Shown in pieces: positions 9,012-46,275 of a stretch of DNA of 64,000 nucleotides (the stretch's first letter is position 1; each line of letters opens with the position of its first letter). The position numbers were made by a program, and so were the translations under genes. The notes beneath the pieces are model-generated. The model worked only from the letters and a program-made list of their open reading frames with translations. It did not search any database and was not told where the DNA came from. The stretch covers positions 142,872 through 206,871 of the forward strand of contig CBDHDL010000021.1 in NCBI GenBank assembly GCA_965261435.1, read 5' to 3'. The stretch comes from Candidatus Poribacteria bacterium. Lineage in GTDB: Bacteria > Poribacteria > WGA-4E > WGA-3G.

Positions 9012-9076
9012 AATAAATTCCTCCTACTATCAATAATTTCCATTTAAGAAATAACTTGTCCTAAAATATAAGGAAA

Positions 9077-25924: not shown

Positions 25925-25968
25925 TAATACTCCATGAAAGTTCTACCGTTAACCTGTAACTATCAAAT

Positions 25969-26760
25969 CTAAGGTTGTTTTAATCGGGAAATTAACTCCC
26001 GGAACAATTCTGCAACGGTGTCAACTGGAATCTCAGATACACCTTCTTTTGTAATTGTTGTTAAGGATGGAAAGATATTTCTGATTAGGTCTGGACCGCC
26101 CGTTGCAATATCTTCATCAGCGGCATCCCAAAGTGCTTCAGCTACAGCTTCCAATGCGGATTCTTTTGACATCTCAGGTTGAAACGTCTTCTTAAGCGTT
26201 GAGCGTGCATCTTTCCCACCCGAACCGATAGCATAATAGGTGTCTTCTTCGTAACGTCCACCTAAAGCATCGTATTTAAAGATGCGACCTTTCTCAAGTC
26301 GGCGATCATATCCTGCAAAAATCGGTAAGACAATCAATCCTTGCATTGCTAAAGTTAGGTTTGATCTCACAAGTGTAGACAGATAATTGGCTTGTCCATC
26401 CAAGCTTAAGGACATACCTTCAATCTTTTCATAATATTCCACCTGAACTTGAAAAAGTTTAGCAGTTTCAATACAGGGTCCCGCTACCCCAGCGACTGCT
26501 ATTGCAGAATGTTGATCGATTTTATACACTTTCTGAATTCGTCGTTCCCCAACTTGATAACCTTCTGTAGCTTGACGGTCCCCTGCGATTATAACACCGT
26601 CGTTGTAGACAAGCGCGAGCACAGTGGTACCTTCCAATATATTGTTAGGTAGATTATCATTTATGTCGTTCAGCCGGTTCCAATCACCGACCTGATCGGG
26701 GTGTCGATCTTTTAATACTTGTAAAAAATCTGTCATTCCATATTCATGGAGTTTGAGCAA
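25969..26760 (-). CDS. prcB: 20S proteasome beta subunit (with propeptide)
   Basis: Propeptide followed by the catalytic N-terminal Thr context EG-TTVLALVYNDGVIIAGDRQ. Confidence 0.85.
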   Translation of the reverse strand: MLKLHEYGMTDFLQVLKDRHPDQVGDWNRLNDINDNLPNNILEGTTVLALVYNDGVIIAGDRQATEGYQVGERRIQKVYKIDQHSAIAVAGVAGPCIETAKLFQVQVEYYEKIEGMSLSLDGQANYLSTLVRSNLTLAMQGLIVLPIFAGYDRRLEKGRIFKYDALGGRYEEDTYYAIGSGGKDARSTLKKTFQPEMSKESALEAVAEALWDAADEDIATGGPDLIRNIFPSLTTITKEGVSEIPVDTVAELFRELISRLKQP

Positions 26761-26762
26761 TC

Positions 26763-26960
26763 CTACTGTCCTCCCCGCTGTATATAGTTTTCGACGAATT
26801 CCTCAGAATCTTCTTCTAAAATCTCATCGATTTCGTCAAGTAGTGCATCTAAGTCTTCGGTTAATTCGTCAACATTATCATTGAGTTCGGGATTAGGATA
26901 AATCTCCTCATTTTCTTTGATGGAGTTATCTTTGTATTCTTGCTGTTTTTCGCTTGGCAT
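26763..26960 (-). CDS. pup: prokaryotic ubiquitin-like protein Pup
   Basis: 65-aa acidic protein ending in ...FVENYIQRGGQ, the Pup C-terminal GGQ. It sits between dop and prcB, and its stop is 3 nt from the prcB start. Confidence 0.8.
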   Translation of the reverse strand: MPSEKQQEYKDNSIKENEEIYPNPELNDNVDELTEDLDALLDEIDEILEEDSEEFVENYIQRGGQ

Positions 26961-27056
26961 GTCGTGCTCCTTATTAGAATTACAGTTACGAAAACCTGTA
27001 TACCGATGTTATCTTACTTTGACAAGAGGGTTAAACATCTTTCAACAAGATTATTT

Positions 27057-28538: not shown

Positions 28539-28637
28539 ATTTCTTTGTGTCAGTCATTCAAATGTTTAGGCAAATGTTTAGGACAAAATTCCGTTGAAAA
28601 TCTAATCTAAAATACAATAGTATCATCAACTGATATT

Positions 28638-30434
28638 TTATAGGTATGATCCACCTTTGCTAACTCTAACTTCGGGTTTTCTGCGCGTTTCGGGTTCATT
28701 AATTAATGCTCGAATATTGACTATTTTTTCACCTTTTCTACCAGAAATCTTAGCCCAATCATCTGGGTTAGTTGTATTGGGAAGATCTTCATTTTCACGG
28801 TATTCTTCACGTATAGCAGTCTTTAGGTCATTTAAAGAGATACCTTTTTCCCTACCTTCAGAACTGATTAGGCGTTTAATTGCCATCTTCTTTGCCCGTG
28901 AAACTATGTTTCTAATCATCGCGCCACTAACAAAATCTTTGAAGAATAACGTTTCACGTTCGCCTCGTGTGTAGGTAACCTCAATAAATCGGTTATCATC
29001 TCTGGTTGCATACATTTCATCAGCAGCTTCAGAAATAAGGTGTTTGACAACATCTTCAGCATTACCGTCAAATTTTTCCCGTACTGCATCTGCAAGCGGT
29101 AGGTCAGGTGTAAGATAGATTCCAAATATATCTTTTGCGCCGTCAATGTTAGGACGATCAATCTTAATTTTAATGTCAAGCCTGCCGGGTCTTAATACAG
29201 CAGGGTCAAGAAGATCTTGCCTATTACTTGCTCCAATGACAATCACATCACGTAAGTTCTCAACGCCATCTATCTCAGCAAGGAATTGCGGCACTAAAGT
29301 TGACTCCATATCCGAGGATATTCCCATACCACGTGAACGAAATAACGAATCCATTTCATCAAAGAATATGACAACAGGAAATCCTTCTCTTGACTTATCC
29401 CGTGCTTTTTGAAATACTTCTCGAATTTTTCTTTCAGTTTCACCAACATACTTATTCAAAAGCTCAGGACCTTTAATGTTGATAAAATAGCCTCTAATGT
29501 CTTCCCTACCCGATTTTTGTCTGATGCGTTCTGCGAGACAATTTGCAACTGCCCTTGCGATCAGAGTCTTTCCACAACCTGGTGGGCCATAGAGCAATAC
29601 ACCTTTTGGGGGTGTGAGGTCAAATTCTTTATATTCTTCAGGGTATAGATAGGGCATTTCTATTGCGTCTCGAATCGCCTCAATCTGCGTGTCCAATCCA
29701 CCTATGTCAGCATAACTTATATCAGGTACTTCTTCGAGCAGTAAATCATCAAGTTCGCGCTTTGGAAGTTTCTCAAGAAGCATCCCGCTGCTATGATTCA
29801 ACAGAACGGTATCCCCTGTTTTTAGTGTTTCTTCTTTTAATGCGGATGAAACACGCACGACCTGTTCTTCATCGGTTCTCAGGCTTACAACAGCGCGTCC
29901 AGATTCAAGTACCTCCTTGATCTTTACCACATCTCCATGTTTTTCAGGAGGTTTAACTGCGACAACGTTCAGTCCACTATTAACGATTACTTCTTGCCCT
30001 ACATCAATCTGATCAGCTTTAATAGTTGGATCAAGATTAACTCTCCATTTCTTTCCACCGATGTCTACATCAATGGTATTATCATCATTAGTACCGAGAA
30101 AGATTCCGTAATTATTCGGAGGTGCACTGAGTTGTTTCACTTTCTCTTTTAATAGCTCAAGTTTCTCTCTTGCTTCTTGAAGTGTCCCGGTGAGTTTTCG
30201 ATTGCGTCTGTGTGCTTGCATTAATTCGCGTGTCATTTCATACAGGCGCGCATCAACATCTTCATCTGGTGAACTTCTGAGTTGTCTTCTTAGATCTGAG
30301 ACCTCGTTTTGAAGCATCTCAATTTGCCAATTTAGTTCTCGAACCATTTGAGGATAATCGATATTATCAGTTTCGATACCTTCAATATCGGAACTTTTCA
30401 ATAAGTCAGATGAAGTGTCTCTTTTAGTTGCCAT
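28638..30434 (-). CDS. arc: proteasome-associated AAA+ ATPase ARC/Mpa
   Basis: N-terminal coiled coil; Walker A GPPGCGKTLIARAVAN; Walker B VIFFDEMD; C-terminus ...GGSYL resembles the Mpa GQYL docking tail. Confidence 0.85.
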   Translation of the reverse strand: MATKRDTSSDLLKSSDIEGIETDNIDYPQMVRELNWQIEMLQNEVSDLRRQLRSSPDEDVDARLYEMTRELMQAHRRNRKLTGTLQEAREKLELLKEKVKQLSAPPNNYGIFLGTNDDNTIDVDIGGKKWRVNLDPTIKADQIDVGQEVIVNSGLNVVAVKPPEKHGDVVKIKEVLESGRAVVSLRTDEEQVVRVSSALKEETLKTGDTVLLNHSSGMLLEKLPKRELDDLLLEEVPDISYADIGGLDTQIEAIRDAIEMPYLYPEEYKEFDLTPPKGVLLYGPPGCGKTLIARAVANCLAERIRQKSGREDIRGYFINIKGPELLNKYVGETERKIREVFQKARDKSREGFPVVIFFDEMDSLFRSRGMGISSDMESTLVPQFLAEIDGVENLRDVIVIGASNRQDLLDPAVLRPGRLDIKIKIDRPNIDGAKDIFGIYLTPDLPLADAVREKFDGNAEDVVKHLISEAADEMYATRDDNRFIEVTYTRGERETLFFKDFVSGAMIRNIVSRAKKMAIKRLISSEGREKGISLNDLKTAIREEYRENEDLPNTTNPDDWAKISGRKGEKIVNIRALINEPETRRKPEVRVSKGGSYL

Positions 30435-30563: not shown

Positions 30564-31727
30564 TTAACTATTATTAGTATCTGATGTTGATGCATCAGTG
30601 TTTTCAAATTCCGTTTCTACTTCATCATCAACAACATCAACAGCAGGTATACTTCCTGCAGCGGATTCAGATTGCGCCATTGTACTCAGATTCTCACGTA
30701 TTTTCTTATCAAGTTCAGTTGCGATCTCAGGATTCTGTTCTAAATAGGTTTTCACATTATTGCGTCCTTGTCCAATCCGTTCATTGTTGTAAGAAAACCA
30801 TGAACCTCTTTTTTGAATGAATCCTGCTTCAACTGCGATATCTAAAAGGTTTCCTTCTATTGAGATACCTTTACCGAATGTTATATCAAACTCTGCTTCC
30901 CTGAATGGCGGTGCAACTTTATTCTTGACGACCTTGACAAGTACTCGATTTCCAAGAACATCTTGTCCTTCTTTTATCTGTGTAGCCCGTCGGATTTCCA
31001 ATCGCACAGAAGCATGAAACTTCAGCGCAAGTCCACCGGGTGTAGTATCTGGATTTCCAAACATGATTCCTATCTTCTGTCGGATTTGGTTTGTAAAAAT
31101 CACACAGGTTTTGGATTTGTTTGTTACGCCAGATAGTTTTCGTAGTGCTTTTGACATCAATCTTGGCAATAAACCGACATGTGCATCGCCCATTTCACCT
31201 TCCACTTCTGCTTGAGGTGTCAATGCAGCAACGGAGTCAATAATAACGACATCTATTGCCCCGCTTCGTATAAGGGTTTCTACAATCTCCAATGCTTGTT
31301 CACCGGCATCTGGCTGGGAAATTAATAGATTTTCCAGATTCACACCGATACTACGTGCATAGGTAGTGTCCAATGCGTGTTCAACATCTATAAATGCTGC
31401 GATGCCCCCCATTTTTTGTGCTTCAGCGACGACGTGCAGTGCTAATGTTGTTTTTCCTGTTCCTTCATGCCCAAAGACTTCAATGATTCTCCCACGAGGG
31501 ACGCCGCCGACACCTAACGCGAGGTCTAATGCAAGTGCACCGGTAGGAATAACTTCCACCGGAACAACTTCGTCGCCGGTCAGACGCATAATTGCCCCTT
31601 TACCATAAGCGCGTTCAACCTGAGATATGGCATCATCAACCGCCTTCTTTTTCTCTGCTGCGTTTTTCTGTTCTTCCGGACTAAGTTCATTGTCTAAACT
31701 GTTTTTGTCATCATTCGCCATTATCAA
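30564..31727 (-). CDS. recA: recombinase RecA
   Basis: [20 protein letters not shown] (Walker A). L1/L2 regions conserved. It has an about 20-aa N-terminal extension and an acidic C-terminal tail. Confidence 0.95.
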
Positions 31728-32303
31728 CTATCTCCTACTCAATTGAAATTTTTTAATAGGTGTGTATACCGATCCACTTGGGTGTAGTTTGCTTTTGACT
31801 AATACAATTTCATTTACTGTCAGCTTTGAATTTTGTAAGGTGTCATATTCCTCAAATATATCCTTAAAACCACTCAAATTCATAGGATTTCTTATTCTTG
31901 CCAGTGTAACATGTGGGTGAAATCGACTCTCGTTCTTAAAACCTAAGTGTACCATTTCAGTGTTAATTTCTTGACCTAATTCTGTTGTAGTCAATGTTCC
32001 TTGTTTTAATCCAATCCATAAGACGCGTGGTCGTGGTATGTTCGGAAATGCCCCTATACCACCAAAATTCAAAGGAAAAGGTTCATATTTTTTTGAAATA
32101 TATTCTATGGTATTGCCGATCTGAGAAATTCTATTCTGCTTTACATCACCAAGGAATTTCAAGGTCAAATGAAAGTTCCCCAATTTTGTCCAGGATGCAT
32201 TACTAATCCTTGACCTTAATGTAGTCTGTATCTCCTCAAAAATCTTTTGAATACTATGTGGTAACTCAATAGCAATAAAACACCGAATAGAGGAATCTCT
32301 CAT
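31728..32303 (-). CDS. thpR: RNA 2',3'-cyclic phosphodiesterase (2H family, ThpR/LigT)
   Basis: Two H-x-T-x motifs, HLTLKFLG and HVTLARI. 191 aa. Confidence 0.7.
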   Translation of the reverse strand: MRDSSIRCFIAIELPHSIQKIFEEIQTTLRSRISNASWTKLGNFHLTLKFLGDVKQNRISQIGNTIEYISKKYEPFPLNFGGIGAFPNIPRPRVLWIGLKQGTLTTTELGQEINTEMVHLGFKNESRFHPHVTLARIRNPMNLSGFKDIFEEYDTLQNSKLTVNEIVLVKSKLHPSGSVYTPIKKFQLSRR

Positions 32304-32333
32304 GACAATTTTATTAAAGAGTGCACGTTTTGC

Positions 32334-32921
32334 TTAAGTTGAAAATGCCTTTCGATTCCCGTATAGGAACTCAATTCCAGAGGTTACCGTTATTATGACT
32401 GGTAAATACATCATAAAATAGATGGGACCGTAAGGTTGAATAACCATTTCAGAATCGAGGTAGAATACCAATAAAAGTAAACTAATTGTTATTATACTAA
32501 GTTGGGTTACAGTTTTGTATTTTCCCCATTTATTAGCGGAAATTACATCCCCATCCTTAGCCACAACAATGATTCGGAATGTAGTTACTATTGTCTCCCG
32601 TCCGAGTATGACCAGCACCATCCAGATAGGAATAAGCCTTGCCCCATTTGCTAAGTGTTCATGTTGAAATAGATAGAAACTGATTAACGCTGCAGCTACA
32701 AGAATTTTATCCACGATGGAATCCATAAAGCTTCCAAACTCTGTTATCCCCTGCTTTCGTGCGATTTTCCCATCTAATAGGTCTGTTAACGCTGCTAACC
32801 CGAAACAGATAGCAGAAGGAAACATCATTTTTGCGCGAAAGAAGAATAGAAAAGGAACTGTTAGCAATAACCGTGAAAATGTTAGTAAATTTGCTAAACG
32901 TAAATATGGATGAGAACTCAT
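32334..32921 (-). CDS. pgsA: CDP-alcohol phosphatidyltransferase (CDP-diacylglycerol--glycerol-3-phosphate 3-phosphatidyltransferase-like)
   Basis: CDP-OH transferase motif DLLDGKIARKQG...GSFMDSIVDK and multiple TM helices. Confidence 0.7.
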   Translation of the reverse strand: MSSHPYLRLANLLTFSRLLLTVPFLFFFRAKMMFPSAICFGLAALTDLLDGKIARKQGITEFGSFMDSIVDKILVAAALISFYLFQHEHLANGARLIPIWMVLVILGRETIVTTFRIIVVAKDGDVISANKWGKYKTVTQLSIITISLLLLVFYLDSEMVIQPYGPIYFMMYLPVIITVTSGIEFLYGNRKAFST

Positions 32922-32927
32922 AAGTGT

Positions 32928-33686
32928 TTATTTTTCCGTAAAGTCAATCACCTCTGCATCTTCTGGAATTTTGAACTTAAATACATCTGCAGTTAACTGC
33001 TTATCTCGTTCAATCTTGGATAGCGTTGTTATTACACTCCTGCGGCTCTTATCAGAATATTCCATAACATATCCGAATTGGACGGGTAGCCAATCTTCTT
33101 CCTGGACCCAAATTTCAAGTGTTTCTTTTACCTGATCTTCATCAGGTGTTTCTTTTACAGTTGTATTTAGCAGATGTGGTTTTGGTGTCAATCTAATTTG
33201 AAACACGCCTTTAGCATTTGCGGCTTCATCGGGGACAAGTTCCATGTTCCAGTTTGATGACACATCTTCAAGAGATGCCCCGACACCAGGTAGTATCTCC
33301 CGTCGTTTTGAGGTATCCCATTTCTTTTTGTTGACTTGGTTGTATATTGGAACATAAGACCATGCGAAAGAACCATCTAAGACGATTACTTTTACGATCC
33401 GTTTCGGATCTTTTGGAGAGACATATTCCTTCCGTAGTAAGTTGGGTTTACCAAATGTGAAGTGTCCGCGTGCAACCCTTTCCTGTGCTTTAAATAGGGT
33501 CGTCTCCTCAAATTCAGCACTGAAATTTTTTGACTCAGTATAAGCGTTTTTGAAATTTTCAAATATTTCATCAACCGTATAGGTATGGGCATTGACACTA
33601 ATACCAAACATCAGTAATAACAGAATCAAAATACAGAAGTGATATTTCACAATGAATCTCCTATCATGTGAGCTGAGGGACGGCAT
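32928..33686 (-). CDS. LolA-like outer-membrane lipoprotein carrier/sorting family protein
   Basis: Signal peptide followed by a pattern reminiscent of the LolA fold. This is a weak motif-level call. Confidence 0.4.
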   Translation of the reverse strand: MPSLSSHDRRFIVKYHFCILILLLLMFGISVNAHTYTVDEIFENFKNAYTESKNFSAEFEETTLFKAQERVARGHFTFGKPNLLRKEYVSPKDPKRIVKVIVLDGSFAWSYVPIYNQVNKKKWDTSKRREILPGVGASLEDVSSNWNMELVPDEAANAKGVFQIRLTPKPHLLNTTVKETPDEDQVKETLEIWVQEEDWLPVQFGYVMEYSDKSRRSVITTLSKIERDKQLTADVFKFKIPEDAEVIDFTEK

Positions 33687-33724
33687 TTGTTAAGAAGATA
33701 GTATATCACACCCAATTTTGCATG

Positions 33725-34240
33725 TCAACGATATTTTTCCGATGTTTCCATCTGAACTGCTTTCTCAATATCTACGTCGGAAGTTAAAATACGCGTCCAA
33801 TCACTTAATTCTACTTCATGACCATCAGTATCATCCAAGGCAAAGTAGACAAGTGTTTCTAAAGTTTTAGACAACTGCGTATCACGAAAAAGTGCTTGGA
33901 ACCAGATACCGAAAAGTTTTAATGCCTCGGATGATTCTGAGAATACCCAAAAGATTACACGGCAGAAATCAAGTCCTTCGTCAACTGATTGGTGCGAAAT
34001 CCATACTTCAGAAGGAAAATCGTGAAAATGGGGTAGAAGATCAGCAATAATGACTGTTTTTTCATGATTCAAGTATGTAATCTCAGGAAAGATGTCTAAT
34101 TGGATAGAATATTTCTGTGCATAAAGTGTAGTTTCTTGAATTTTAGTGTTCATTATCACTCTCCAGTCGCAATATAACAGAATGTGGTACAAAGAACGCA
34201 AGCTAACAGAATGCCTCTTATTGGCGAGGGTGTTGTTCAA
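33725..34240 (-). CDS. hypothetical protein
   Basis: 171-aa ORF with no recognisable motif. Confidence 0.3.
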   Translation of the reverse strand: MNNTLANKRHSVSLRSLYHILLYCDWRVIMNTKIQETTLYAQKYSIQLDIFPEITYLNHEKTVIIADLLPHFHDFPSEVWISHQSVDEGLDFCRVIFWVFSESSEALKLFGIWFQALFRDTQLSKTLETLVYFALDDTDGHEVELSDWTRILTSDVDIEKAVQMETSEKYR

Positions 34241-34940
34241 AATAAGCCCAAAATATTATAGTTGTAAATTAGCAAAAATTGTCTTATTATAACTGTAATA
34301 CGATTTATGGTAGTGTGAGCGTTCACACTATATTGATTCTTAGCAAGTGCTACTTTTTAGGTGTGTCTTTTATCTAAAACTGTACCATCAAAAATGATAT
34401 GTCCGTTGTGGGTTTGATTCAGGTGCGGTTTAACACTTTCCCAGACACAACGGGGTAGTAAACGATCACTCTATATGCGTCAATTTAGTGAATTTCCCAG
34501 GCCGGTAGGTGCGATTTCCTAATCGCGCTGGATCCTTCGCGAAAACCTTTATGAACGCAATTCGCACAAAGCCGGTTCGGTTAGGAAACCGAACCTACCG
34601 ACCTGAAATTTATAGCGGGATTCTCCTTAAAGTGACGCTTACGGGGTGGTAAACGATCACCCGCAAAATAACGATTAATTTGATCATGACTGAACTGTTC
34701 ACAGTGATCCGTAAAATTGATTATAGCATAGTTGACAAGTGTAGTTAGTAGATATTGACAATAATTTACTGTTTTGTCAATACTTAACTAAAAATAAACG
34801 GAGATACTCCATCATAAGAGATTGTTTGAGATTGCTATTAAGTATTATATTAACCCAAGTCGCCGCCTTGTAGCATAATCTGTTAGATTGTGCCTGTGAG
34901 GGTGCAATCTAACAGTTTACGCTACGATATATTATGAAAA

Positions 34941-37900
34941 ATGGATTATTTTCTATTTAAGGAATTATTAATGTCTCATAGAAAATATGGAAGATGGTAT
35001 GTAACATTTTTACTTTTGTGTGTTTTTGTCCTCTATTCTATAAGTTATGCGGATGTGACTCCTGTTGCTGACCGCACGCCACAAGTGCGTGATGCGATTG
35101 TTGCTGCAGTACCGGGTGTGGATTCTGCAGCCGATGTGACTGCGGAGCATCTGTCAACGATGACGAGTCTTACCCTGCGTTTGTTAAAGATAACGTCGTT
35201 GGCATCAGGTGATTTTTCTGGGTTAACAGGTATGACTTCTCTGAACCTCTACGGGAACCAGCTCTCCAGTTTACCTGCTGGTATTTTTGAAGGGTTGACA
35301 TCTTTGACAACACTACGTTTAGGGAGAAACGCTGTGGATCCTCTCCCTTTGACTGTATCATTAGAAAAGGTTGCCGAAGGTGAGTTCAAGGCGGTTGTCC
35401 CTGCAGGAGCGACGTTTGATATTGTTTTACCGATCACTGTTGCAAATGGCAGTATCACGGGTGGTACGACAGCACTCACAATTTCTCAGGGTGGCACAGA
35501 GAGTAGCCTGTTTGAGGTAACACGCACCCCTGGTACAACAGGTGAAGTCACCGTTGATATTGGTACATTACCGAGTTTGCCTCGTAATCATTATGGTTAC
35601 GAACTTGTCAAATCCGATGCACTTCTCCTGACTATCATCGGTGGCATAAACACGGCACCTACTTTTGCTGAAGGCAATATCACTATACGTACCATTGCAG
35701 AAAATGTCTCGGTAGGCACGAACATCGGTGCGCCGATAACAGCCACGGATGTAGAGGATGACACACTGACTTGGACCCTCGGTGGCGTTGATGCCGATTC
35801 CTTTGAGATAAATAGTACAACAGGGCAGCTTAAGACCAAAGCACCGCTTGACTATGAAACCAAGCGTGTCTATTCGGTGTCCCTCACAGTTGCTGATGAA
35901 GAGCTATCCGATACGATAACGGTAATTATCAGCGTGATTGACGTAAGTGATACTGTTGTCGCTGCGGATGTTTTTCCTGTCGTTGACCGCACGCCACAAG
36001 TGCGTGATGCAATCGTGGCGGCGATCCCCACTGTGCGTGATGCAACCCAAGTAACCGCCACACACCTCGCAAGTATAACAAGTCTGAACCTGCGTAGCAA
36101 AGGTATTTCTGCACTGAAAATAGGTGATTTTTCTGGACTTGTCGCACTTACAAATCTCAATCTATTTGGGAATCAACTTTCCAGTCTACCCGTAGGCACT
36201 TTTGATGGTTTGGGGGCACTCACTACGCTCCGATTAGGTGGCAACGTTGTTGACCCACTCCCGTTGATCGTGTCTTTACAACAGGTCCGTGATAGCGAAT
36301 ATCGTGCGATAATACCTACTGGCGCGCCTTTCCCGATCCGCCTCCCGATTACCGTCACTGATAGTAGTATTAGCGGTGGGATAACATCTGTTGTGATCTC
36401 ACAAGGTAGGCGTCATAGTGCCCCATTTACCGTAGTCGGCACCTCCGCAAAAGTGTCTATCGGCATGTTGCCCGGAGTGCCGCGTAACCATTACGGGTAT
36501 GTGCTTGCACAATCCACCGTCAGCAGCCGCACCGAACAAGTGGCAACTGCGATTGCTGCTGCGATAGGTGTTAGCGATAGTCGTTCTGTGACCGAGATAG
36601 ACCTTGCTACGATAACAAGTCTCGATCTCTCAGGAACTTCTCTTACGACGCTCAAAACAGGCGATTTTGCGGATATGGTATCGTTGACAACACTCAACTT
36701 GTCAAACAATGCACTGACGTACCTACCGGCTGACATCTTTGATGACACACCGTCGCTGCGTTCCATTACTTTAGCCAATAACCAGCTTTCAAGTCTCCCT
36801 GTTGGATTGTTCACGGGGTTGTCGTTTCTGAGCACGGTTGACCTCAGTGGCAACGGCATCACAAGCTTATCAGATGGAACATTCAGTGAGTTATCTACGT
36901 TGACAACCCTCAATTTGTCCAACAACAAGATGTCTACGTTACCAGCTGGCATTTTTGAGGGGTTGACATCGTTGAATCAACTCTCATTAAGTGGGAATAC
37001 AGTGGATCCGTTGCAGATAGGTGTATCACTCCAGAAGGTAGGAATAAATCAGTTTAAAGCAGTCGCTCTCACAGGTGCGCCGTTTAATATCGTGTTGCCA
37101 CTCGAACGGATAAATGGCACGGTTCGCGGCGTGGCAACAACCATTCAGATACCGAAAGGCAGTGTGGAAAGCCAACCCTTGACAATGATCCGGATGCCCA
37201 ACACTATTGCAGCAGTTGAAGTAGATATAGTCAATGTGCCGCAGCTCCCCTCAAATCATAACGGGTACGCGCTTGTGAAATCTATGACTCGGCGGTTAGA
37301 AGTACTCCCGATCTTGAACTCGCCACCCGTGTTCACTGAAGGCACAAGCACGACTCGCAATATCGCAGAGAATACCGCAGCAGGCACAAACATCGGTGAT
37401 CCTGTTTCAGCGACAGATGTTGATGAAGACACGTTAACCTACCGGATCGGTGGTACAGATGCAGCCGCTTTCGCTATTGATACATCCTCCGGACAACTGC
37501 GAACAAGTGCAATCTTAGACTATGAAAACAAGAACTCTTATTCTATCACCGTCTCGGTTTCTGATGGCAATGGTGGAAGTGATAGCATTACCGTCACTAT
37601 CACTGTGACGGATGTTAGTGAAACTAAGATAACACCTGCGATTAGTGACCGCACACCACAGGTACGTGATGCCATCGTTGCTGCAGCCAGTGTTTCCTCC
37701 GCTGCTGATGTGAACGCAGCGCACCTCACAGCGATCAGAACTCTGGACCTTTTAGACCACTCCATCAGTTCCTTGAAAGCAGGTGATTTCAGTGGACTTA
37801 CCTCACTGATATGGATCGATCTGTCTTCCAATTCCATAAGTGATATATCTGCCCTTGAGGACTTGACTTCACTTGAAACGCTCCGTCTGTATGACAATTC

Positions 37901-39038
37901 CATAAGTGATATATCTGTCCTTTCAGGGTTGACTTCATTGACAACACTCAATCTGTCTGGTAATTCCATAGGTGATATATCTGCACTTTCAGGATTGACT
38001 TCACTGACAACGCTCAATCTGTCTATCAATTCCATAAGTGATATATCTGCACTTTCAGGGTTGACTTCACTGACAAGGCTCGGTCTCAGGGGTAATTCCA
38101 TTTCAGATTACGGACCGCTGCGCAGGCTACTCGCAGCAATTGAGGCAGCTGGTAATAGTTTATCACTTGATACTACTATCCCGCTTGTCGGAAACAACAA
38201 CGATGCCCCCATATTCACAGATGGCACCAGCACGACACGTTCTATCGTTGAAAATACTGGATCTGGTGTCAATATCGGTCCTGCGGTATCAGCAACCGAT
38301 GCGGATAACGATACACTCACATATACGCTCATTGGTACGGATGCGTCATCATTTAGCATTGTCAGTTCATCAGGACAGCTCCAAACAAAAGCATCCCTTG
38401 ACTATGAAAACAAAAACTCTTATTCTGTCACCATCTCTGTCTCTGATAGCAACGGTGGGACAGATAGCATTACCGTCACTATCAATGTTACGGATGTGAG
38501 TGAAACGACAATAACACTTGTCAGTGAACGAACATCACAGGTACGCGATGCTATTGTCGCCGCACTCCGTGGTGTTTCCTCCGCGGCGGATGTGACCGCA
38601 GCACACCTCACAACAATTACATCTTTGGACCTTTCAGACCAATCCATCAGTTCATTGAAACCAGGTGATTTCAGTGGACTTTCTTCACTGACAACGCTCC
38701 GTCTGTATGACAATTCCATAAGTGATATATCTGCACTTTCAGGGTTGACTTCACTGACAACGCTCAATCTGTCTGGCAATTCCATAAGTGACATATCTGC
38801 ACTTTCAGGGTTGACTTCACTGACAAGGCTCAATCTGTCTATCAATTCCATAAATGATATATCTGTCCTTTCAGGGTTGACTTCACTGACAAGGCTCAAT
38901 CTGTCTATCAATTCCATAAGTGATATATCTGCACTTTCAGGGTTGACTTCACTGACAAGGCTCGGTCTCAGGGGTAATTCCATTTCAGATTACGGACCGC
39001 TGCGCAGGCTACTCGCAGCACTTGAGGCAAGCTGGTAA
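34941..39038 (+). CDS. giant surface protein, segment 1 (signal peptide, Ig/cadherin-like repeats, LRR modules); open frame ends at a +1 frameshift
   Basis: Signal-like N-terminus. Repeated module RTPQVRDAIVAA...AADVTAAHL followed by LRRs (NSISDISALSGLTSLTTLNL). Cadherin-like repeats (LDYE.K..YS.TV.VSDG...D.ITVTI.VTDV). It stops at 39036 where ...LEAAGNSLSLDTTIP of every other module reads gcaAgctggtaa, with an extra A at about 39029. Confidence 0.7.
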   Translation: MDYFLFKELLMSHRKYGRWYVTFLLLCVFVLYSISYADVTPVADRTPQVRDAIVAAVPGVDSAADVTAEHLSTMTSLTLRLLKITSLASGDFSGLTGMTSLNLYGNQLSSLPAGIFEGLTSLTTLRLGRNAVDPLPLTVSLEKVAEGEFKAVVPAGATFDIVLPITVANGSITGGTTALTISQGGTESSLFEVTRTPGTTGEVTVDIGTLPSLPRNHYGYELVKSDALLLTIIGGINTAPTFAEGNITIRTIAENVSVGTNIGAPITATDVEDDTLTWTLGGVDADSFEINSTTGQLKTKAPLDYETKRVYSVSLTVADEELSDTITVIISVIDVSDTVVAADVFPVVDRTPQVRDAIVAAIPTVRDATQVTATHLASITSLNLRSKGISALKIGDFSGLVALTNLNLFGNQLSSLPVGTFDGLGALTTLRLGGNVVDPLPLIVSLQQVRDSEYRAIIPTGAPFPIRLPITVTDSSISGGITSVVISQGRRHSAPFTVVGTSAKVSIGMLPGVPRNHYGYVLAQSTVSSRTEQVATAIAAAIGVSDSRSVTEIDLATITSLDLSGTSLTTLKTGDFADMVSLTTLNLSNNALTYLPADIFDDTPSLRSITLANNQLSSLPVGLFTGLSFLSTVDLSGNGITSLSDGTFSELSTLTTLNLSNNKMSTLPAGIFEGLTSLNQLSLSGNTVDPLQIGVSLQKVGINQFKAVALTGAPFNIVLPLERINGTVRGVATTIQIPKGSVESQPLTMIRMPNTIAAVEVDIVNVPQLPSNHNGYALVKSMTRRLEVLPILNSPPVFTEGTSTTRNIAENTAAGTNIGDPVSATDVDEDTLTYRIGGTDAAAFAIDTSSGQLRTSAILDYENKNSYSITVSVSDGNGGSDSITVTITVTDVSETKITPAISDRTPQVRDAIVAAASVSSAADVNAAHLTAIRTLDLLDHSISSLKAGDFSGLTSLIWIDLSSNSISDISALEDLTSLETLRLYDNSISDISVLSGLTSLTTLNLSGNSIGDISALSGLTSLTTLNLSINSISDISALSGLTSLTRLGLRGNSISDYGPLRRLLAAIEAAGNSLSLDTTIPLVGNNNDAPIFTDGTSTTRSIVENTGSGVNIGPAVSATDADNDTLTYTLIGTDASSFSIVSSSGQLQTKASLDYENKNSYSVTISVSDSNGGTDSITVTINVTDVSETTITLVSERTSQVRDAIVAALRGVSSAADVTAAHLTTITSLDLSDQSISSLKPGDFSGLSSLTTLRLYDNSISDISALSGLTSLTTLNLSGNSISDISALSGLTSLTRLNLSINSINDISVLSGLTSLTRLNLSINSISDISALSGLTSLTRLGLRGNSISDYGPLRRLLAALEASW

Positions 39039-40986
39039 TAGTTTATCACTTGATACTACTATCCCACCTGTCCGCAGCAACAACAATGCCCCCGTATTCA
39101 CAGATGGCACGAGCACAACACGCTCTGTCGCGGAAAACAGTGGTTCTGGTGTCAATATCGGTTCTGTGGTATCAGCAACCGATGCGGATAACGATACACT
39201 TACATATACGCTCATTGGCACAGATGCGTCATCATTTAGCATTATCAGTTCATCAGGACAGCTCCAAACAAAAGCATCCCTTGACTATGAAAACAAAAAC
39301 TCTTATACAGTCACAGTGTCAGTTTCTGATGGCAACGGTGGGACAGATAGCATTACCGTCACTATCAATGTTACGGATGTTAGTGAAACGACGATAACAC
39401 TCGTCAGTGAAAGAACATCACAGGTGCGCGATGCTATTGTCGCCGCACTCCATGGTGTTTCCTCCGCGGCGGATGTGACCGCAGCACACCTCACAGCGAT
39501 TACATCTTTGGACCTTTCAGACCAATCCATCAGTTCATTGAAACCAGGTGATTTCAGTGAACTTACCTCACTGACAACGCTCAATCTGTCTTACAATTCC
39601 ATAGGTGATATATCTGCACTTGAGGACTTGACTTCACTGACAACGCTCAATCTGGCTGGCAATTCCATAAGTGATATATCTATCCTTTCAGGGTTAACTT
39701 CACTGACAAGGCTTAATCTGTCTATCAATTCCATAAGTGATATATCTGCCCTTGAGAACTTGACTTCACTGACAAGGCTCAATCTATCTGACAATTCCAT
39801 AAGTGATATATCTGCCCTTGAGAACTTGACTTCACTGACAAGGCTCGGTCTCAGGGGTAATTCCATTTCAGATTACGGACCGTTGCGCAGGCTCCTCGCA
39901 GCACTTGAGGCAGCTGGTAATAGTTTATCACTTGATACTACTATCCCGTCTGTCCGTAGCAACAACAATGCACCCGTATTCACAGATGGCACGAGTACAA
40001 CGCGCCACATCCCAGAAAACAGTGGTTCTGGTGTTAACATCGGTTCTGCGGTCTCAGCAACCGATGCGGATAACGATACACTCACATATACGCTCATTGG
40101 CACAGATGCGTCATCATTTAGCGTTGTCAGTTCATCAGGACAGCTCCAAACAAAAGCATCCCTTGACTATGAAAACAAAAACTCATATACAGTCACAGTG
40201 TCAGTTTCTGATGGAAAGAGTGGAACCGATAGCATTACCGTCACTATCAATGTTACGGATGTTAGTGATACGCCGCTAACATCTGACAGTGAGCGAACAC
40301 CGCAAGTGCGTGATGCCATCGTTGCTGCAGCCGGTGTAGCATCTGCGACTGATGTGACCACAACACACCTTGCAACGATTACATCTTTAGACCTTTCAAA
40401 CCTATCCATCGGTTCCTTGAAAGCAGGTGATTTCAGTGGACTTACCTCACTGACATGGCTCGATTTGTCTGACAATTCCATAAGTGATATATCTGCACTT
40501 GAGGACTTGACTTCACTTGAAACGCTCCATCTGTATGACAATTCCATAAGTGATATATCTGCACTCTCAGGGTTGACTTCACTGACAACGCTCAATCTGG
40601 CTGACAATTCCATAAGTGATATATCTGCGCTTGAGGACTTGACTTCACTGACAAAGCTCGGTCTCAGGGGTAATTCCATTTCAGATTACGGACCGTTGCG
40701 CAGGCTCCTCGCAGCACTTGAGGCAACTGGTAATAGTTTATCACTTGATACTACTATCCCGCCTGTCCGTAGCAACAACAATGCACCCGTATTCACAGAT
40801 GGCACGAGCACAACGCGTTTTGTCGTGGAGAACACTGGTTCTGGTGTTAACATCGGTTCTGCGGTATCAGCAACCGATGCGGATAACGATACACTTGCAT
40901 ATACGCTCATTGGCACGGATGCGTCCTCGTTTAGCATTGTCGGTTCATCCGGGCAGCTTGCTAACAAAAGCAACTTTGGATTATGA
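39022..40986 (+). CDS. same giant gene, segment 2 (cadherin-like plus LRR modules); ends at a second +1 frameshift
   Basis: Continues the about 880-bp module periodicity. The first residues of the ORF call are out of frame. It ends at 40986 where gggcagctTgctaac (extra T at about 40959) replaces the gggcagctgctaac of the following units. Confidence 0.65.
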   Translation: MRQAGNSLSLDTTIPPVRSNNNAPVFTDGTSTTRSVAENSGSGVNIGSVVSATDADNDTLTYTLIGTDASSFSIISSSGQLQTKASLDYENKNSYTVTVSVSDGNGGTDSITVTINVTDVSETTITLVSERTSQVRDAIVAALHGVSSAADVTAAHLTAITSLDLSDQSISSLKPGDFSELTSLTTLNLSYNSIGDISALEDLTSLTTLNLAGNSISDISILSGLTSLTRLNLSINSISDISALENLTSLTRLNLSDNSISDISALENLTSLTRLGLRGNSISDYGPLRRLLAALEAAGNSLSLDTTIPSVRSNNNAPVFTDGTSTTRHIPENSGSGVNIGSAVSATDADNDTLTYTLIGTDASSFSVVSSSGQLQTKASLDYENKNSYTVTVSVSDGKSGTDSITVTINVTDVSDTPLTSDSERTPQVRDAIVAAAGVASATDVTTTHLATITSLDLSNLSIGSLKAGDFSGLTSLTWLDLSDNSISDISALEDLTSLETLHLYDNSISDISALSGLTSLTTLNLADNSISDISALEDLTSLTKLGLRGNSISDYGPLRRLLAALEATGNSLSLDTTIPPVRSNNNAPVFTDGTSTTRFVVENTGSGVNIGSAVSATDADNDTLAYTLIGTDASSFSIVGSSGQLANKSNFGL

Positions 40987-43357
40987 GAAAAAAGTCCAGT
41001 ATTCTGTGACGGTGAAAGTTTCTGATGGAAAACTCACGGACACAATCACGGTTACTATCAATGTGACAGATGTGCAGGAGAACCGAGCCCCGCTATTTAG
41101 TGCTGACACAGCAACACGGTCTGTCGCAGAAAACACTGCTGCTGGACAAAACATCGGGGCTGCAATAACAGCAACAGACTCGGATAACGACAACTTGACC
41201 TATACTCTTGAGGGTACGGATGCGTCCTCGTTTAGCATTGTCAGTTCATCCGGGCAGCTGCTAACAAAAGCAACTTTGGATTATGAGAAAAAAGTCCAGT
41301 ATTCTGTGACGGTGAAAGTTTCTGATGGAAAACTCACGGACACAATCACGGTTACTATCAATGTGACAGATGTGCAGGAGAACCGAGCCCCGCTATTTAG
41401 TGCTGACACAGCAACACGGTCTGTCGCAGAAAACACTGCTGCTGGACAAAACATCGGGGCTGCAATAACAGCAACAGACTCGGATAACGACAACTTGACC
41501 TATACTCTTGAGGGTACGGATGCGTCCTCGTTTAGCATTGTCAGTTCATCCGGGCAGCTGCTAACAAAAGCAACTTTGAATTTTGAAAGCAAAAGCAGCT
41601 ATGAAGTGACGGTGTCTGTTTCTGATGGGAATGGCGGAAGTGATAGTATTACTGTCACTATCAATGTGGCGGATGTGAATGAGAACCAACCTGTATTTAG
41701 TGATGGCGCAAGCACGACGCGGTCTATCGCAGAAAACACTGTCGCAGGTCAAAACATCGGAGACCCAGTATCCGCAACGGATGCGGATACTGGTGATACG
41801 TTAACCTATAGTCTTGGCGGTACGGATGCGTCATCGTTTGATATTATTAGCACATCAGGACAACTTCAAACCAAAGTTGCTTTGGATTATGAGGGGTCGA
41901 AAAATTCCTATACCGTCACCGTGTCTGTCTCTGATGGTAAAGGTGGGACTGATAAGATTACCGTGTCCATCATCGTCACAGATGTAACCGAAACTACTAC
42001 GGCACCTCAGATACAGATTACACCTGTCGGGAAACGGACATCACAGGTGCGTGATGCGATTGTGGCTGACATCTCTGGTGTTTCCTCCGCGGAAGATGTG
42101 ACCGAAGCACACCTCACAACGATCACATCTTTGGACCTTTCAAACCAATCCATCAGTTCCTTGAAAGCAGGTGATTTCAGTGGACTGACTTCGCTGACAC
42201 ACCTCCGTCTGTATAACAATTCCATAAGTGATATATCGGCTCTTTCGGACTTGACTTCACTGACATGGCTCTTTCTGTCTAACAATTCCATAAGTGATAT
42301 ATCGGCTCTTTCAGGGTTGACTAAATTGACAAGGCTCACTCTGTATGACAATTCCGTAAGCGATATATCGGCTCTTTTGGACTTGACTTCACTGACATGG
42401 CTCCATCTGTATGACAATTCTATAAGTGATATATCGGCTCTTTCAGCCTTGACTGAATTGACATGGCTTGAACTGGGGGAGAATTCCATAAGTGATATAT
42501 CGGCTCTTTCAGCCTTGACAGACCTGAGATCGCTCAATCTGTATAACAATACCATAAGTGATATATCGGCTCTCTCGGGCATGACTAAAATGACAGACCT
42601 CTATCTGTCTAAAAATTCCATAAGTGATATATCGGCTCTCTCGGGCATGACTAAAATGACAACGCTCTATCTGTCTAACAATTCCATAAGTGATATATCG
42701 GACCTTGAAGACTTGACTAAATTGACAACGCTCTATCTGTCTAACAATTCCATAAGTGATATATCGGCTCTCTCGGGCATGACTAAAATGACATGGCTCT
42801 TTCTGTCTAACAATTCCATAAGTGATATATCGGACCTTGAAGACTTGACTAAATTGACAACGCTCTATCTGTCTAACAATTCCATAAGTGATATATCTGC
42901 CCTTGAAGACTTGACTAAATTGACATGGCTTCAACTGGATGGCAATTCCATTTCAGATTACGGACCGTTGGGCAGGCTCAAGGCAGCAATTGAAGCAGCC
43001 GGTAATAGTTTATCACTTGACATTACTATCCCAGCAGATGCTCCCTCACATGCCGCTGTTCCTAAGTCAACATCACTTTTACCCAACTTCCCCAACCCGT
43101 TCAACCCGGAAACGTGGATTCCGTATCAGTTAGCCAAACCCTCAGCGGTGACAATAACGATATTTGATGTCCGGGGACGTGTTGTGCGGACGTTGATTTT
43201 AGGCACTCAACCTTCGGGTATCTATAGAAGTCAAAGCAAGGCAGCCCATTGGGATGGTAAAAACGCGTTCGGGGAAAAGGTCGCAGGAGGAATGTATTTC
43301 TATAGGCTTACGGCAGGTGATTTTTCTGCCACACGCAAAATGTTAATTTTGAAGTGA
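40957..43357 (+). CDS. same giant gene, segment 3: cadherin-like repeats, LRR array and T9SS-type C-terminal sorting domain
   Basis: In-frame continuation LLTKATLDYEKKVQYSVTVKVSDG. The C-terminus NFPNPFNPETWIPYQL...VTITIFDVRGRVVRTL...GIYRSQSKAAHWDGKNAFGEKVAGGMYFYRLTAGDFSATRKMLILK matches the T9SS-type CTD. The listed ORF start at 40718 is an out-of-frame artefact. Confidence 0.7.
40981..41580. repeat. perfect 2 x 300-bp tandem duplication (one cadherin-like repeat unit) inside the giant gene
   Basis: 40981..41280 and 41281..41580 appear identical. The antisense ORFs 40981..41193 and 41281..41493 have identical 70-aa translations. Confidence 0.85.
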
Positions 43358-43411: not shown

Positions 43412-45760
43412 GTGAAAACTTTAGGCAATAAATCAAAGAAAATTGGGCAAACCTTGATGATTCTTAGTTTTGCTTTTCTAATGTTAACAACAGTTCCTGT
43501 TATAGCGAATGAATTTGAAATCGGAACACAGTTCGGGATTTCCCGTTTTATTCCTGACAGCGAGGATTCTTCAACGACAAGTATTACCTTCACTCGGTTA
43601 CCAGCAGGAACACTTGTTGATATTGGGACATCTCCAACATCACTGTACGCGACGTTCTTTCTGGGCAAAAAATATGCGGTTGGGTCAGAATTCAGTTTTG
43701 GAGAAATGTCAGTGTCAGATGAGTCTTGGGCCGATGAGGATAACGCAAGCTTAATGACACTTCACCTTGGTGGTCGCGCATCATACTTTTTGTTTAGTCA
43801 TTCAGTATCTTCACCTTACGTATTCGGACAGATGGCTCGCACTATATTTATTGGTGATGCTAATTTCTTTTTTGAAGGTGACAACAACTCATCTCTTGCG
43901 AGTTTGGGGGGCGGTTTAGGGTATCAGTGGCGTATAGGCCCTGCTTTTGTGCTGCGGACAGAAGCACAGTATCAACGCGTGTTTGTTGTAGATGAAGATC
44001 AAAATGCAAATGAGTTCTCATTTATTATTGGCATCGGCACACGGTTCGGAGGCAATAACAACCCAGCAGAGGCAAAACTTGATCTCAATGACACAGAATT
44101 CACGCCTGTCAGTGCAAGAACACCACAGGTACGTGACGCGATTGTTGCTGCGGTGCCGGGTGTGAATAATGCTGATGCTGTGACCGCAGCACACCTCGCG
44201 GAGATTACATCTTTAGACCTTGCAGACCCATCCATCAGTTCCCTAAAAGCAGGTGATTTCAATGGACTTACCTCACTGACAGAACTCTTTCTGACTTCCA
44301 TAAGTGATATATCTGTACTTGAAGATTTGTCTTCACTGACAGAACTCAATTTGTGGAATAATTCCATAAGTGATATATCCGCACTTGAAAACCTAACAGC
44401 ACTGACAGATCTTTTTTTGTCTTCCAATTCCATAAGTGACATATCTGCGCTTGAGAACCTCACAGGACTGACAACGCTCGATCTGTCTTCCAGTACCGTA
44501 AGTGATATATCCGCCATTGAAAACCTAACAGCACTGGAATGGCTCAAGCTGGGTAACAGTTCCATCAGCGATATATCTGCGCTTCAAAACTTGACAGCAC
44601 TGAAAGAACTCTATCTGTCTTCCAGTACCATAAGTAATATATCCACACTTGAAAACCTAACAGCATTGGAATGGCTCGATTTGTCTTCCAATTCCATAAG
44701 TGATATATCTGCCCTTGAAAACATGACAGCACTAACATTTCTCGATCTGTCTTCCAATTCCATAAGTGATATATCCGCACTTGAAAACTTGACAGCACTG
44801 ACAATGCTCAATCTTTATGGTAACAACATCAAGGATATATCTGCGTTTGAGGACATGACTTCACTAACAGATCTCTATCTGAGTCACAATTCCATAAGTG
44901 ATATATCCGCACTTGAAAACTTGACAGCACTGAGAACACTCAATCTGGCTAAGAATTCCGTAAGTGATATATCTGCGCTTGAAAATCTCACAGCACTGAC
45001 AGAGCTCACTCTACCTGAAAGTTCCATAAATGATATATCTGCGCTTGAAAATCTCACAGCACTGACAACGCTCTATCTGGGTAGCAACGATATCAATGAT
45101 ATATCTACGCTTGAAAACTTGACAGCACTGACAGAACTCCATCTGTTTTCCAATTCCATAAGTGATATATCTGCGCTTGAAAACATGACCTTACTGAGAG
45201 AGCTGAATCTGGGGGGTAATTCCATAAGTGATATACCGTCTCTTGAAAACTTGACAGCACTGACAACGCTCTATCTGTGGGATAATTCCATAAGCGATAT
45301 ATCTGTGCTTGAAAACCTGACTTCACTGAGAACACTGAATATATATCGCAACGACATCAAGGATATATCTGGGCTTGAAAACCTGACCTTATTGAAAGAT
45401 CTCTATCTGAGTCACAATTCCATAAGTGATATATCCGCGCTTGAAAACTTGACAGTGCTAACAAGGTTGACTTTGCATCACAATGCTATCAGCGATGTAT
45501 CTGCGCTTGAAAACCTGAATGCACTGAAAATGCTCAAGCTGAGTCACAATTCCATCAAGGATATATCTGCACTTGAAAACCTGATTGCACTGACAGAGCT
45601 CAATCTGGATAATAATTCTATAAGTGATATATCCGCACTTGAAAATTTGACAGCATTGAAAAAGCTTGAACTGCGGAACAATCCGATTTCAGATTACGGA
45701 CCGCTTCGTAGACTCAAAGCAAAAAATCCAGGTATGCAGACTGATATTACTATTCCGTAG
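43412..45760 (+). CDS. paralogous LRR protein with N-terminal signal peptide and outer-membrane beta-barrel-like domain; C-terminal sorting domain lost
   Basis: GTG start 5 nt after AAGGAG. Signal MILSFAFLMLTTVPVIA. About 200-aa region of alternating hydrophobic strands ending ...FSFIIGIGTRFGG (OMP beta-barrel-like). Then the RTPQVRDAIVAAVPGV cap and about 25 LRRs (NSISDISALENLTAL). It ends ...TDITIP-TAG. Confidence 0.7.
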   Translation: MKTLGNKSKKIGQTLMILSFAFLMLTTVPVIANEFEIGTQFGISRFIPDSEDSSTTSITFTRLPAGTLVDIGTSPTSLYATFFLGKKYAVGSEFSFGEMSVSDESWADEDNASLMTLHLGGRASYFLFSHSVSSPYVFGQMARTIFIGDANFFFEGDNNSSLASLGGGLGYQWRIGPAFVLRTEAQYQRVFVVDEDQNANEFSFIIGIGTRFGGNNNPAEAKLDLNDTEFTPVSARTPQVRDAIVAAVPGVNNADAVTAAHLAEITSLDLADPSISSLKAGDFNGLTSLTELFLTSISDISVLEDLSSLTELNLWNNSISDISALENLTALTDLFLSSNSISDISALENLTGLTTLDLSSSTVSDISAIENLTALEWLKLGNSSISDISALQNLTALKELYLSSSTISNISTLENLTALEWLDLSSNSISDISALENMTALTFLDLSSNSISDISALENLTALTMLNLYGNNIKDISAFEDMTSLTDLYLSHNSISDISALENLTALRTLNLAKNSVSDISALENLTALTELTLPESSINDISALENLTALTTLYLGSNDINDISTLENLTALTELHLFSNSISDISALENMTLLRELNLGGNSISDIPSLENLTALTTLYLWDNSISDISVLENLTSLRTLNIYRNDIKDISGLENLTLLKDLYLSHNSISDISALENLTVLTRLTLHHNAISDVSALENLNALKMLKLSHNSIKDISALENLIALTELNLDNNSISDISALENLTALKKLELRNNPISDYGPLRRLKAKNPGMQTDITIP

Positions 45761-45829
45761 CAGTTTCTACTTCTGTACACGGAAGGTAGGGACTTTACTG
45801 CAACACGGAAGATGTTGATACTGAAGTAA
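45761..45829 (+). pseudogene. vestigial T9SS CTD tail, in frame after the TAG stop of the LRR paralog
   Basis: In-frame translation after the stop: QFLLLYTEGRDFTATRKMLILK-stop, versus FYRLTAGDFSATRKMLILK at the end of 40957..43357. Confidence 0.6.
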
Positions 45830-46138
45830 ACGCTACCAAACGGAAGGTAAAAACCATATATGAAAAAACTAACATTTGTCTTGCACATCTACACGAATTG
45901 GCGTCCCTTCAAAAGTATTTCTCTCAGCGCAGTGTGATTATCATCGCATTGGCGTGGTTGACAGGTGCAGGTCTGGTTGCATGAACTACCATTTTCTGTA
46001 ATGTTCAGTGAACAAGTTGCCGATGAACACGGTGCGGAAACGGATGACATCTTGTTATCAGTGTTCCGTGAACCGACATAATACCATTTCTATAAATTAT
46101 TGTGTCATTAGACTGTTATTATTGTAGTCATTTTTCAG

Positions 46139-46202
46139 GCCACAAACTGAAAGTTTGTGGTACAAAAAAGAGACATTTTCAAGAAGAAATGGTATAAGAT
46201 TG
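46139..46202. repeat. dispersed about 65-bp element with perfect hairpin CCACAAACT-gaa-AGTTTGTGG followed by TACAAAAAAGAGACATTTTCAAGAAGAAATGGTAT
   Basis: Second copy at 63404..63470 (about 85% identity, with compensatory hairpin). The 3' half alone recurs at 16585..16625 (aacattttcaattagaaatggtatta). This copy is about 75 bp upstream of apt. Confidence 0.6.
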
Positions 46203-46275
46203 GAGGAGGGATACCTTGTCCATTTCCAAGTATTTCTAAACGTTACAACAAAATACCGAGAGGTTTTACAATTTT

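Follow-up and report, generated by a model that had tools for sequence, protein, structure and literature searches.

Two +1 frameshifts in a giant LRR-cadherin gene of a Candidatus Poribacteria contig

A single gene spread over three reading frames

We analysed a 64-kb stretch of DNA (hereafter, the window) that is part of a 4,832,559-bp contig of a Candidatus Poribacteria metagenome-assembled genome (MAG) deposited at NCBI and ENA; the bacterium is a sponge symbiont. Three successive open reading frames (ORFs) on the + strand of the window, at 34941..39038, 39022..40986, and 40718..43357, encode leucine-rich repeats (LRRs) and cadherin units. Their frame indices are 2, 0, and 1, which means that each is shifted by +1 relative to the preceding one, and the overlap is 17 nt between the first two and 269 nt between the last two. 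When one A (39029/39030) and one T (40958/40959) are removed, the three ORFs become a single one of 8415 nt, i.e., 2804 codons, with zero internal stops. The repaired protein has 2794 aa when counted from the ATG at 34971, the start used by the orthologues and by the public gene call.

The interval 34971-43357 is one gene, broken twice, and not three genes. This follows because the repaired ORF is free of stops, because the locus has a single signal peptide and a single sorting domain, and above all because the homologues are uninterrupted. The Pfam matches to LRR_8/LRR_4 and Cadherin are present in all three segments and run on in the shifted frame past both junctions, so chance cannot be the cause of the continuity. 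A preliminary description of the window, made from the sequence alone, had proposed precisely this: one LRR/cadherin/sorting-domain gene of ~8.4 kb with two +1 frameshifts and an intact product of roughly 2800 aa. Our results agree on all these points, with two small corrections. One concerns the start of the gene, which had been placed at 34941 and which the orthologues and the public gene call move to 34971, and the other concerns the first part of the third ORF.

The public gene calls are divided in the same way as in the window (P0121, 34971-39035, and P0206, from a GTG at 41006 to 43354), and both frameshifts are therefore already in the deposited record. The beginning of the third ORF deserves a comment. 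Its first ~80 codons (40718-40957) are the preceding cadherin unit read out of frame, and they form a mildly hydrophobic leader whose sequence turns up again in other modules, as an alternative-frame ORF. We found such ORFs, all beginning with MRQLVIVYHLILLSRL..., on the + strand at 38140-38499, 39050-39397, 39905-40279, and 40718-40957. They correspond to the +1 reading of the module C-cap and of the cadherin start, and are by-products of the repeats. Their recurrence accounts for the spurious N-terminus of the third ORF.

The upstream intergenic region (34256..34970, +) includes a 682-nt gap without ORF and has promoter-like hexamers at 34755-34784, identified by consensus match only. In a scan that included this region and the interior of the gene, promoter-like and terminator-like sites were no commoner than in shuffled sequence, so no promoter, either upstream or internal, is demonstrated. 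The gene itself starts with the only Sec-type signal peptide of the locus (MSHRKYGRWYVTFLLLCVFVLYSISYA, 34971..35051, +), which emerged from a hydropathy scan of all in-frame starts. Its hydrophobic core has a mean Kyte-Doolittle hydropathy of 2.84, and its N-terminus is shared by the intact homologues P0069, P0109, and P0056. The same scan revealed no signal-peptide-like N-terminus at any in-frame start of the second segment or of the true frame of the third.

Segment 1 (34971..39038, +; 1355 aa as called, P0121) ends at a TAA made by the first frameshift. Its N-terminus has three modules (caps at 35073, 35988, and 36528), each composed of a cap (RTPQVRDAIVAA...), 24-aa LRRs, and an Ig-like domain ending in NHxGY; the segment further holds two cadherin units, placed among these three modules, and two 882-nt modules (caps at 37650 and 38529). 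Four such modules were mapped in tandem at 37265..40724 (+), using the repeat families D1-D6, Tandem Repeats Finder (TRF), a motif map, and PDB matches. Each has a cadherin unit, a cap (RT[PS]QVRDAIVAA...), 22-aa internalin-like LRRs, and a C-cap (SISDYGPLRRLLAALEAAGNSLSLDTTIP), and their spacing of ~882 nt fits the ~880-bp module structure proposed earlier. The LRR part matches internalin A and Roco LRRs in PDB, and the cadherin part matches CELSR1. Segment 2 (39031..40957, +), which is the true-frame part of the ORF at 39022-40986, contains two complete modules and the 5' part of a chimeric cadherin unit, and has neither signal peptide nor sorting domain. The true frame of segment 3 (40960..43357, +) contains four cadherin units, a cap (42035), ~14 22-aa LRRs, a C-cap (42947), and the sorting domain. 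It includes a terminal array of 66-nt (22-aa) LRRs (42208..42930, +), with 11 copies according to TRF.

The C-terminal sorting domain (TIGR04183 Por_Secre_tail / FlgD_ig-like; 43088..43354, +; ~90 aa; motif FPNPFNPETWIPYQL) is the only one in the locus. It scores 38 bits against the NCBIfam model TIGR04183 (cutoff 23), 27.9 against PF18962 (cutoff 27), and 28.9 against PF13860 (cutoff 27). The repeats match their profiles as well: cadherin PF00028 gives 119, 99, and 138.7 bits in the three segments, for a gathering threshold of 28.8, and we mapped nine LDYE-type cadherin units in the gene; the LRR profiles PF13855 and PF12799 give 140-283 bits, for a cutoff of 27, and TRF shows the corresponding 66-nt tandem arrays. 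The hydropathy scan and the TIGR04183/Pfam searches thus agree with the earlier statement that the signal peptide is confined to the first segment and the sorting domain to the last. As deposited, the two frameshifts separate them, and only the repaired ORF has both on one polypeptide.

In the databases, the best homologues bear the name Candidatus Poribacteria, and the related loci derive from Poribacteria MAGs. The contig itself encodes two paralogues, P0069 (2467 aa) and P0109 (2752 aa), which start with the signal peptide found here and are single intact ORFs. Compared with the gene of the window, their first ~890 aa are ~88% identical and their C-terminal domains 85-91% identical, whereas the regions in between differ entirely. 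In a related species, represented by CBDBFT010000001.1 (5.9 Mb, a species representative), there are four dispersed paralogues (L002-L005, of which L002 is P0056) that are single ORFs of 2053-2349 aa and keep both conserved ends, the N-terminal ~890 aa as well as the C-terminal domain. These six close homologues are all single intact ORFs (2053-2752 aa), and their N-terminal ~890 aa are 82-88% identical to those of the window's gene. Since homologues with the same ends are single ORFs, the locus of the window is one gene. An uninterrupted frame in related genomes had been named as informative in the preliminary description, and all the homologues that we examined were intact, including two more distant loci (L006 and L007).

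By sequence comparison, the family is multi-copy (at least three copies in this genome and four in the related species), with a conserved N-terminus of ~890 aa, a conserved sorting domain, and a hypervariable middle whose modules vary completely in number and type. The shared N-terminus is 81-89% identical among the members, and the C-terminal domain of the window's gene is 85-93% identical to those of the intact paralogues; identity is slightly higher within one genome than between species. On the same contig, the frame is unbroken in at least four more genes of the family (2467-3651 aa), and beyond these the family has over 100 further members of 2200-4800 aa. One member in another long-read Poribacteria MAG (L014, 1-7900; ERZ26693581 ctg358791_21x_l) is itself damaged, through either decay or assembly: its 4825-aa protein (P0001) ends via a 1-nt loss at a G6 run (~6319), and the last ~1.5 kb, including the FPNPFNPETW sorting domain, are scattered over all three frames. 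Hence, split giant genes are not unique to the window.

The two insertions and the repeats around them

The preliminary description had placed a single extra nucleotide at each ORF boundary, and the alignments of modules and cadherin units confirm this. The start-to-start spacings of the modules are 882, 883, 882, and 813 nt, and it is the interval of 883 that spans junction 1. Similarly, the spacing of cadherin units is 301 nt across junction 2 and 300 nt otherwise. At frameshift 1 (39029..39030, +), the gene has AA against one base in each of the four sister module copies (GAGGCA[A]GCTGG), and the alignment of the five copies puts the extra A within a stretch of ~130 nt that is nearly invariant among them. 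At frameshift 2 (40958..40959, +), it has TT against one base in the sister cadherin units (CAGCT[T]GCTAAC, eight units aligned). Both insertions are a copy of the preceding base and change the homopolymer length from 1 to 2. They are 1929 nt apart; we considered artefacts at the boundaries of 500-nt polishing windows as their source, and this distance is not a multiple of 500. Junction 1 reads GAGGCAGCTGG without the extra A and GAGGCAAGCTGG with it, and junction 2 reads CAGCTGCTAAC without the extra T and CAGCTTGCTAAC with it. The peptides of the repaired frame are ...LEAAGNSLSL... (RRLLAALEAAGNSLSLDTTIPPVR) at junction 1 and SSGQLLTKATLDYE (IVGSSGQLLTKATLDYEKK) at junction 2. No sister module and no homologue has a frameshift at either site.

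Junction 1 falls inside the conserved C-cap and junction 2 inside a cadherin unit, both in modules that match neighbouring copies at 83-100% identity. Directly 3' of frameshift 2 begins a tract of two tandem 300-nt cadherin units that are 100% identical (40959..41558, +; repeat family D7, TRF period 300, alignment). The cadherin unit before them, at ~40760-41058, is a chimera, with a 5' half of the 882-module type and a 3' half of the 300-unit type. The identical tandem units and the chimeric unit are evidence that recombination or duplication took place within the gene very recently. Homopolymers in the gene reach A6 at most, 2-7-nt repeats of at least four copies are absent, and the A6 runs are located away from the junctions.

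Origin of the frameshifts

We infer, with only a slight preference over an artefact, that the two insertions are present in the DNA of the organism. The reading that we favour, with a probability just under one half (~0.48), is that both are real and very recent, and that the gene is a young pseudogene. Two unprogrammed single-base insertions would have broken it, and the product would be at most a fragment of 1355 aa that keeps the signal peptide and loses the sorting domain. With at least two intact paralogues in the genome, the loss of this copy would be tolerable. The frame is disrupted relative to intact homologues, as expected for a pseudogene, and several observations argue for real mutations. 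Over its other ~55 kb, the window is densely coding and contains no broken gene. The ~12 kb of flanking genes are 97.5% identical to a short-read scaffold of another strain (L012) and show no frame-disrupting difference. Both lesions are in one redundant paralogue. Finally, the consensus of HiFi long reads is reported to be >99.99% accurate (PMC11392814). Two further comparisons were set aside. The L012 scaffold, from the only other strain found, is uninformative at the junctions themselves, since its version of the repeat gene, at the end of the scaffold, is collapsed, contains N, and differs in structure. The clustering of the insertions (two out of two indels in 8.4 kb of the ~42 kb of family genes on the contig, p ~0.04) was given no weight because the gene was picked for having frameshifts.

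Other observations weigh against a real lesion, and they are largely those that would be expected if the gene of the organism were intact (~2794 aa) and the extra bases were consensus errors at a locus that is rich in repeats and variable between strains, within a metagenome assembled from long reads. We regard such an artefact as only slightly less probable than real mutations. Two exact-pattern scans of JGI metagenome contigs, tolerating either base state, gave 0 matches, and protein searches returned no near-identical read-through protein: a 781-aa query running from junction to junction found at most 76% identity beyond the window's own fragments. Both insertions are 1-to-2 homopolymer changes and fall in highly repetitive DNA, where the modules share 83-100% identity with the adjoining copies, and one abuts the perfect 300-nt duplication. 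They are the sole lesions in 2804 codons, with neither a nonsense codon nor a deletion besides, and all homologues examined are intact. The damaged family member of L014, another long-read Poribacteria MAG, shows a similar indel-type disruption, including the 1-nt loss at a G6 run. The locus also differs strongly between strains whose flanks are 97.5% identical, which makes mixed reads plausible.

The possible assembly method is relevant in this respect. Sponge-metagenome MAGs of this type, including Poribacteria, were made at Sanger with a pre-release version of metaMDBG (PMC12181767), and related contigs carry names of the form 'ctgN_cov x_l'. In metaMDBG, the graph is built in homopolymer-compressed minimizer space and the base sequence is taken from individual reads (PMC11392814). 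Changes in homopolymer length from 1 to 2 are invisible in that space and are left to a racon-like polishing in 500-nt SPOA windows; according to the authors, the errors which this step has to correct are 'mostly homopolymers' (PMC11392814). A later version added a second polishing round for base accuracy (PMC13087279). Yet 1-to-2 length errors are the rarest class of HiFi errors, and the A6 runs and the runs of 4-5 nt in the gene show no frame break. The remaining 55 kb of the window and the other family genes of the contig, at least four of which (2467-3651 aa) were assembled without frameshifts, also speak against an artefact. We tried a test of a consensus artefact from mixed alleles, in which the inserted base is compared with the sister-copy allele at the next column. 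The two coincide by chance at 21% and 28.5% of sites, respectively, giving a joint value of ~0.06, which is not significant and gives no proof of such an artefact.

All the readings other than a real pseudogene and an artefact are, even taken together, improbable. Reversible on/off switching, in which real frameshifts are removed and re-created by unequal recombination, by gene conversion between tandem modules, or by slipped-strand mispairing, is very unlikely. The geometry of the repeats would permit it: the deletion of an 883-nt module, with a crossover in a 36-nt perfect match 3' of junction 1 or in a 55-nt perfect match 5' of it, restores the frame at that site, as does a 301-nt deletion with a crossover in a 45-nt near-identical stretch 5' of junction 2. 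The perfect 300-nt duplication indicates that recombination of this kind is still under way, and recA lies 3 kb upstream of the gene, a context that we regard as coincidental. However, there is no simple-sequence tract at either junction or elsewhere in the gene, switching needs the reversion of two independent off-lesions, and no homologue has the same arrangement. The specific variant of a recombinational switch, with unequal crossing-over removing one 883-nt and one 301-nt unit, is scarcely to be expected: the geometry allows it, and nothing else speaks for it. If true, it would mean that a sponge symbiont expresses one member of a variable family of giant adhesins reversibly, in a way linked to the number of modules. 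Phase-variable or contingency expression, suggested in the preliminary description, was not supported in the form of slippage: simple-sequence contingency loci have a repeat tract at the frameshift site, whereas here the junctions are AA and TT, and there is neither a homopolymer of at least 7 nt nor a short tandem repeat.

The production of the full-length protein from the deposited sequence, by programmed +1 ribosomal frameshifting or by transcriptional slippage, is hardly credible. The downstream frame is indeed +1 at both sites, and the zero-frame codon at junction 2 is CUU, the slippery codon of prfB. But a programmed frameshift of the prfB type combines a slippery codon with a stop or hungry codon in a conserved arrangement, and no stop or rare (hungry) codon directly follows either shift point, where the ORFs overlap by 17 and 269 nt. 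There is also no A/T run for transcriptional slippage. At least four sister modules and all homologues encode the same peptide unshifted, and the sites are therefore not conserved recoding signals. The absence of slippery sites and repeat tracts, together with the unshifted sisters and homologues, makes both slippage-based phase variation and programmed frameshifting unlikely. We give just as little credence to three independent genes, even if gene callers list separate ORFs (P0121 and P0206). Only segment 1 has a signal peptide and only segment 3 a sorting domain, and we found no separate promoters, signal peptides, or sorting domains per segment within the locus. Furthermore, the junctions fall within a conserved C-cap and within a cadherin unit, the first ~80 codons of the third ORF are an out-of-frame cadherin unit, and the homologues are single ORFs.

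Neighbourhood, function, and relation to known systems

Directly downstream of the giant gene (43412-45760, +) is encoded a 782-aa protein with the RTPQVRDAIVAA cap, ~21 22-aa LRRs, and no sorting domain. Its N-terminal region has a weak match to an outer membrane protein beta-barrel (PF13505, below cutoff), and the protein may be related to the giant one but anchored in another way. The strain scaffold L012, although 97.5% identical otherwise, lacks the whole of 43456-46213. On the other side, a 171-aa ORF without Pfam or NCBIfam match (33728-34240, -) separates the upstream region of the giant gene from a LolA-like gene. The latter is one of four same-frame ORFs at 30567-33689 (-), each one stop codon apart, that encode RecA, the RNA 2',3'-cyclic phosphodiesterase ThpR, PgsA, and the LolA-like protein. 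We considered this region as a second broken gene and ruled it out, as these are four distinct genes in a very compact string. Further away, 23866-30434 (-) contains a cluster encoding a Pup-ligase, a proteasomal AAA ATPase, and the proteasome. The same type of cluster, plus a UBact gene, lies near another family member in L014 (17693-24083), which suggests a loose conservation of the neighbourhood. At 5373-12160 (-), a 1213-aa protein with a Sacsin-domain match adjoins a 1027-aa SNF2/ResIII helicase.

The domain content suggests how the intact protein would work. The Sec signal peptide would carry it across the inner membrane, and the TIGR04183-type domain would direct it to the outer surface, where the LRR and cadherin arrays would serve as surfaces for adhesion or host interaction, like those of the eukaryote-like repeat proteins of sponge symbionts. 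The preliminary description had labelled the sorting domain as one of the type IX secretion system (T9SS). The domain does pass the TIGR04183 cutoff, but the Por/T9SS structural genes are reported not to have been found in poribacterial single-cell genomes (PMC3909097), and we found no type IX secretion machinery gene (PorU/PorV/SprA etc.) within the 64-kb window. For this reason, the export route given here is a predicted one.

The consequences depend on the origin of the insertions. Real insertions would mean that a sponge symbiont has only just lost one working copy of a multi-copy giant LRR-cadherin family, which adds a small data point on how host-interaction genes turn over. As artefacts, they would serve as a warning that long-read metagenome assemblies can split giant repetitive genes, inflating gene counts and hiding full-length adhesins. 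Neither outcome alters current understanding, and the description of the family is the more useful by-product.

The frameshifts themselves are an ordinary phenomenon, and the type of protein, with LRRs, cadherin units, and a sorting domain, is already described for Poribacteria. Like frameshifted pseudogenes and indel errors of long-read metagenome assemblies, the locus has single-base indels that produce adjacent shifted ORFs shorter than their homologues, and nothing sets it apart from this class. IDEEL-type checks count such splits as frameshift errors, 'some of which may be genuine pseudogenes' (PMC13087279).

The LRR part resembles the class 1 internalins of Listeria (InlA, InlB, and InlH), which likewise have 22-residue LRRs; PDB matches to internalin A and other internalins have E values of 1e-54 to 1e-62, and the NCBIfam internalin_A model gives partial hits. 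Internalins are also surface proteins with a C-terminal anchoring or sorting signal. Nevertheless, this is not a class 1 internalin, as it scores 198.5 bits with internalin_A (NF033189 and related), for a cutoff of 1600, and 138.9 with internalin_H, for a cutoff of 1050. Internalins are found in Gram-positive bacteria, have LPXTG or GW anchors, lack cadherin units and the TIGR04183 tail, and have roughly a tenth of the size. In nature, frameshift or nonsense mutations that truncate inlA remove the anchor, an effect parallel to the one expected here.

The gene also resembles the type A cargo of the T9SS of Bacteroidota: the ~90 C-terminal aa pass TIGR04183 and PF18962, there is a Sec signal peptide, and the protein is large, repetitive, and predicted to be exposed at the surface. 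In contrast to that cargo, it is encoded by a Poribacterium, a host for which Por/T9SS genes are reported as not found (PMC3909097). Its domain repertoire is that of the eukaryote-like repeat proteins of the same phylum, which combine LRR, cadherin, and Ig-like domains with TIGR04183 and either a signal peptide or a transmembrane helix (Kamke et al. 2014, PMC3909097). PF12799/PF13855, PF00028, a signal peptide, and the TIGR04183 tail are all present here too. That study is a catalogue of domains in fragmentary single-cell genomes, whereas here we give the full architecture of one giant gene and place it in a paralogous set with conserved ends, of which this copy is frameshifted.

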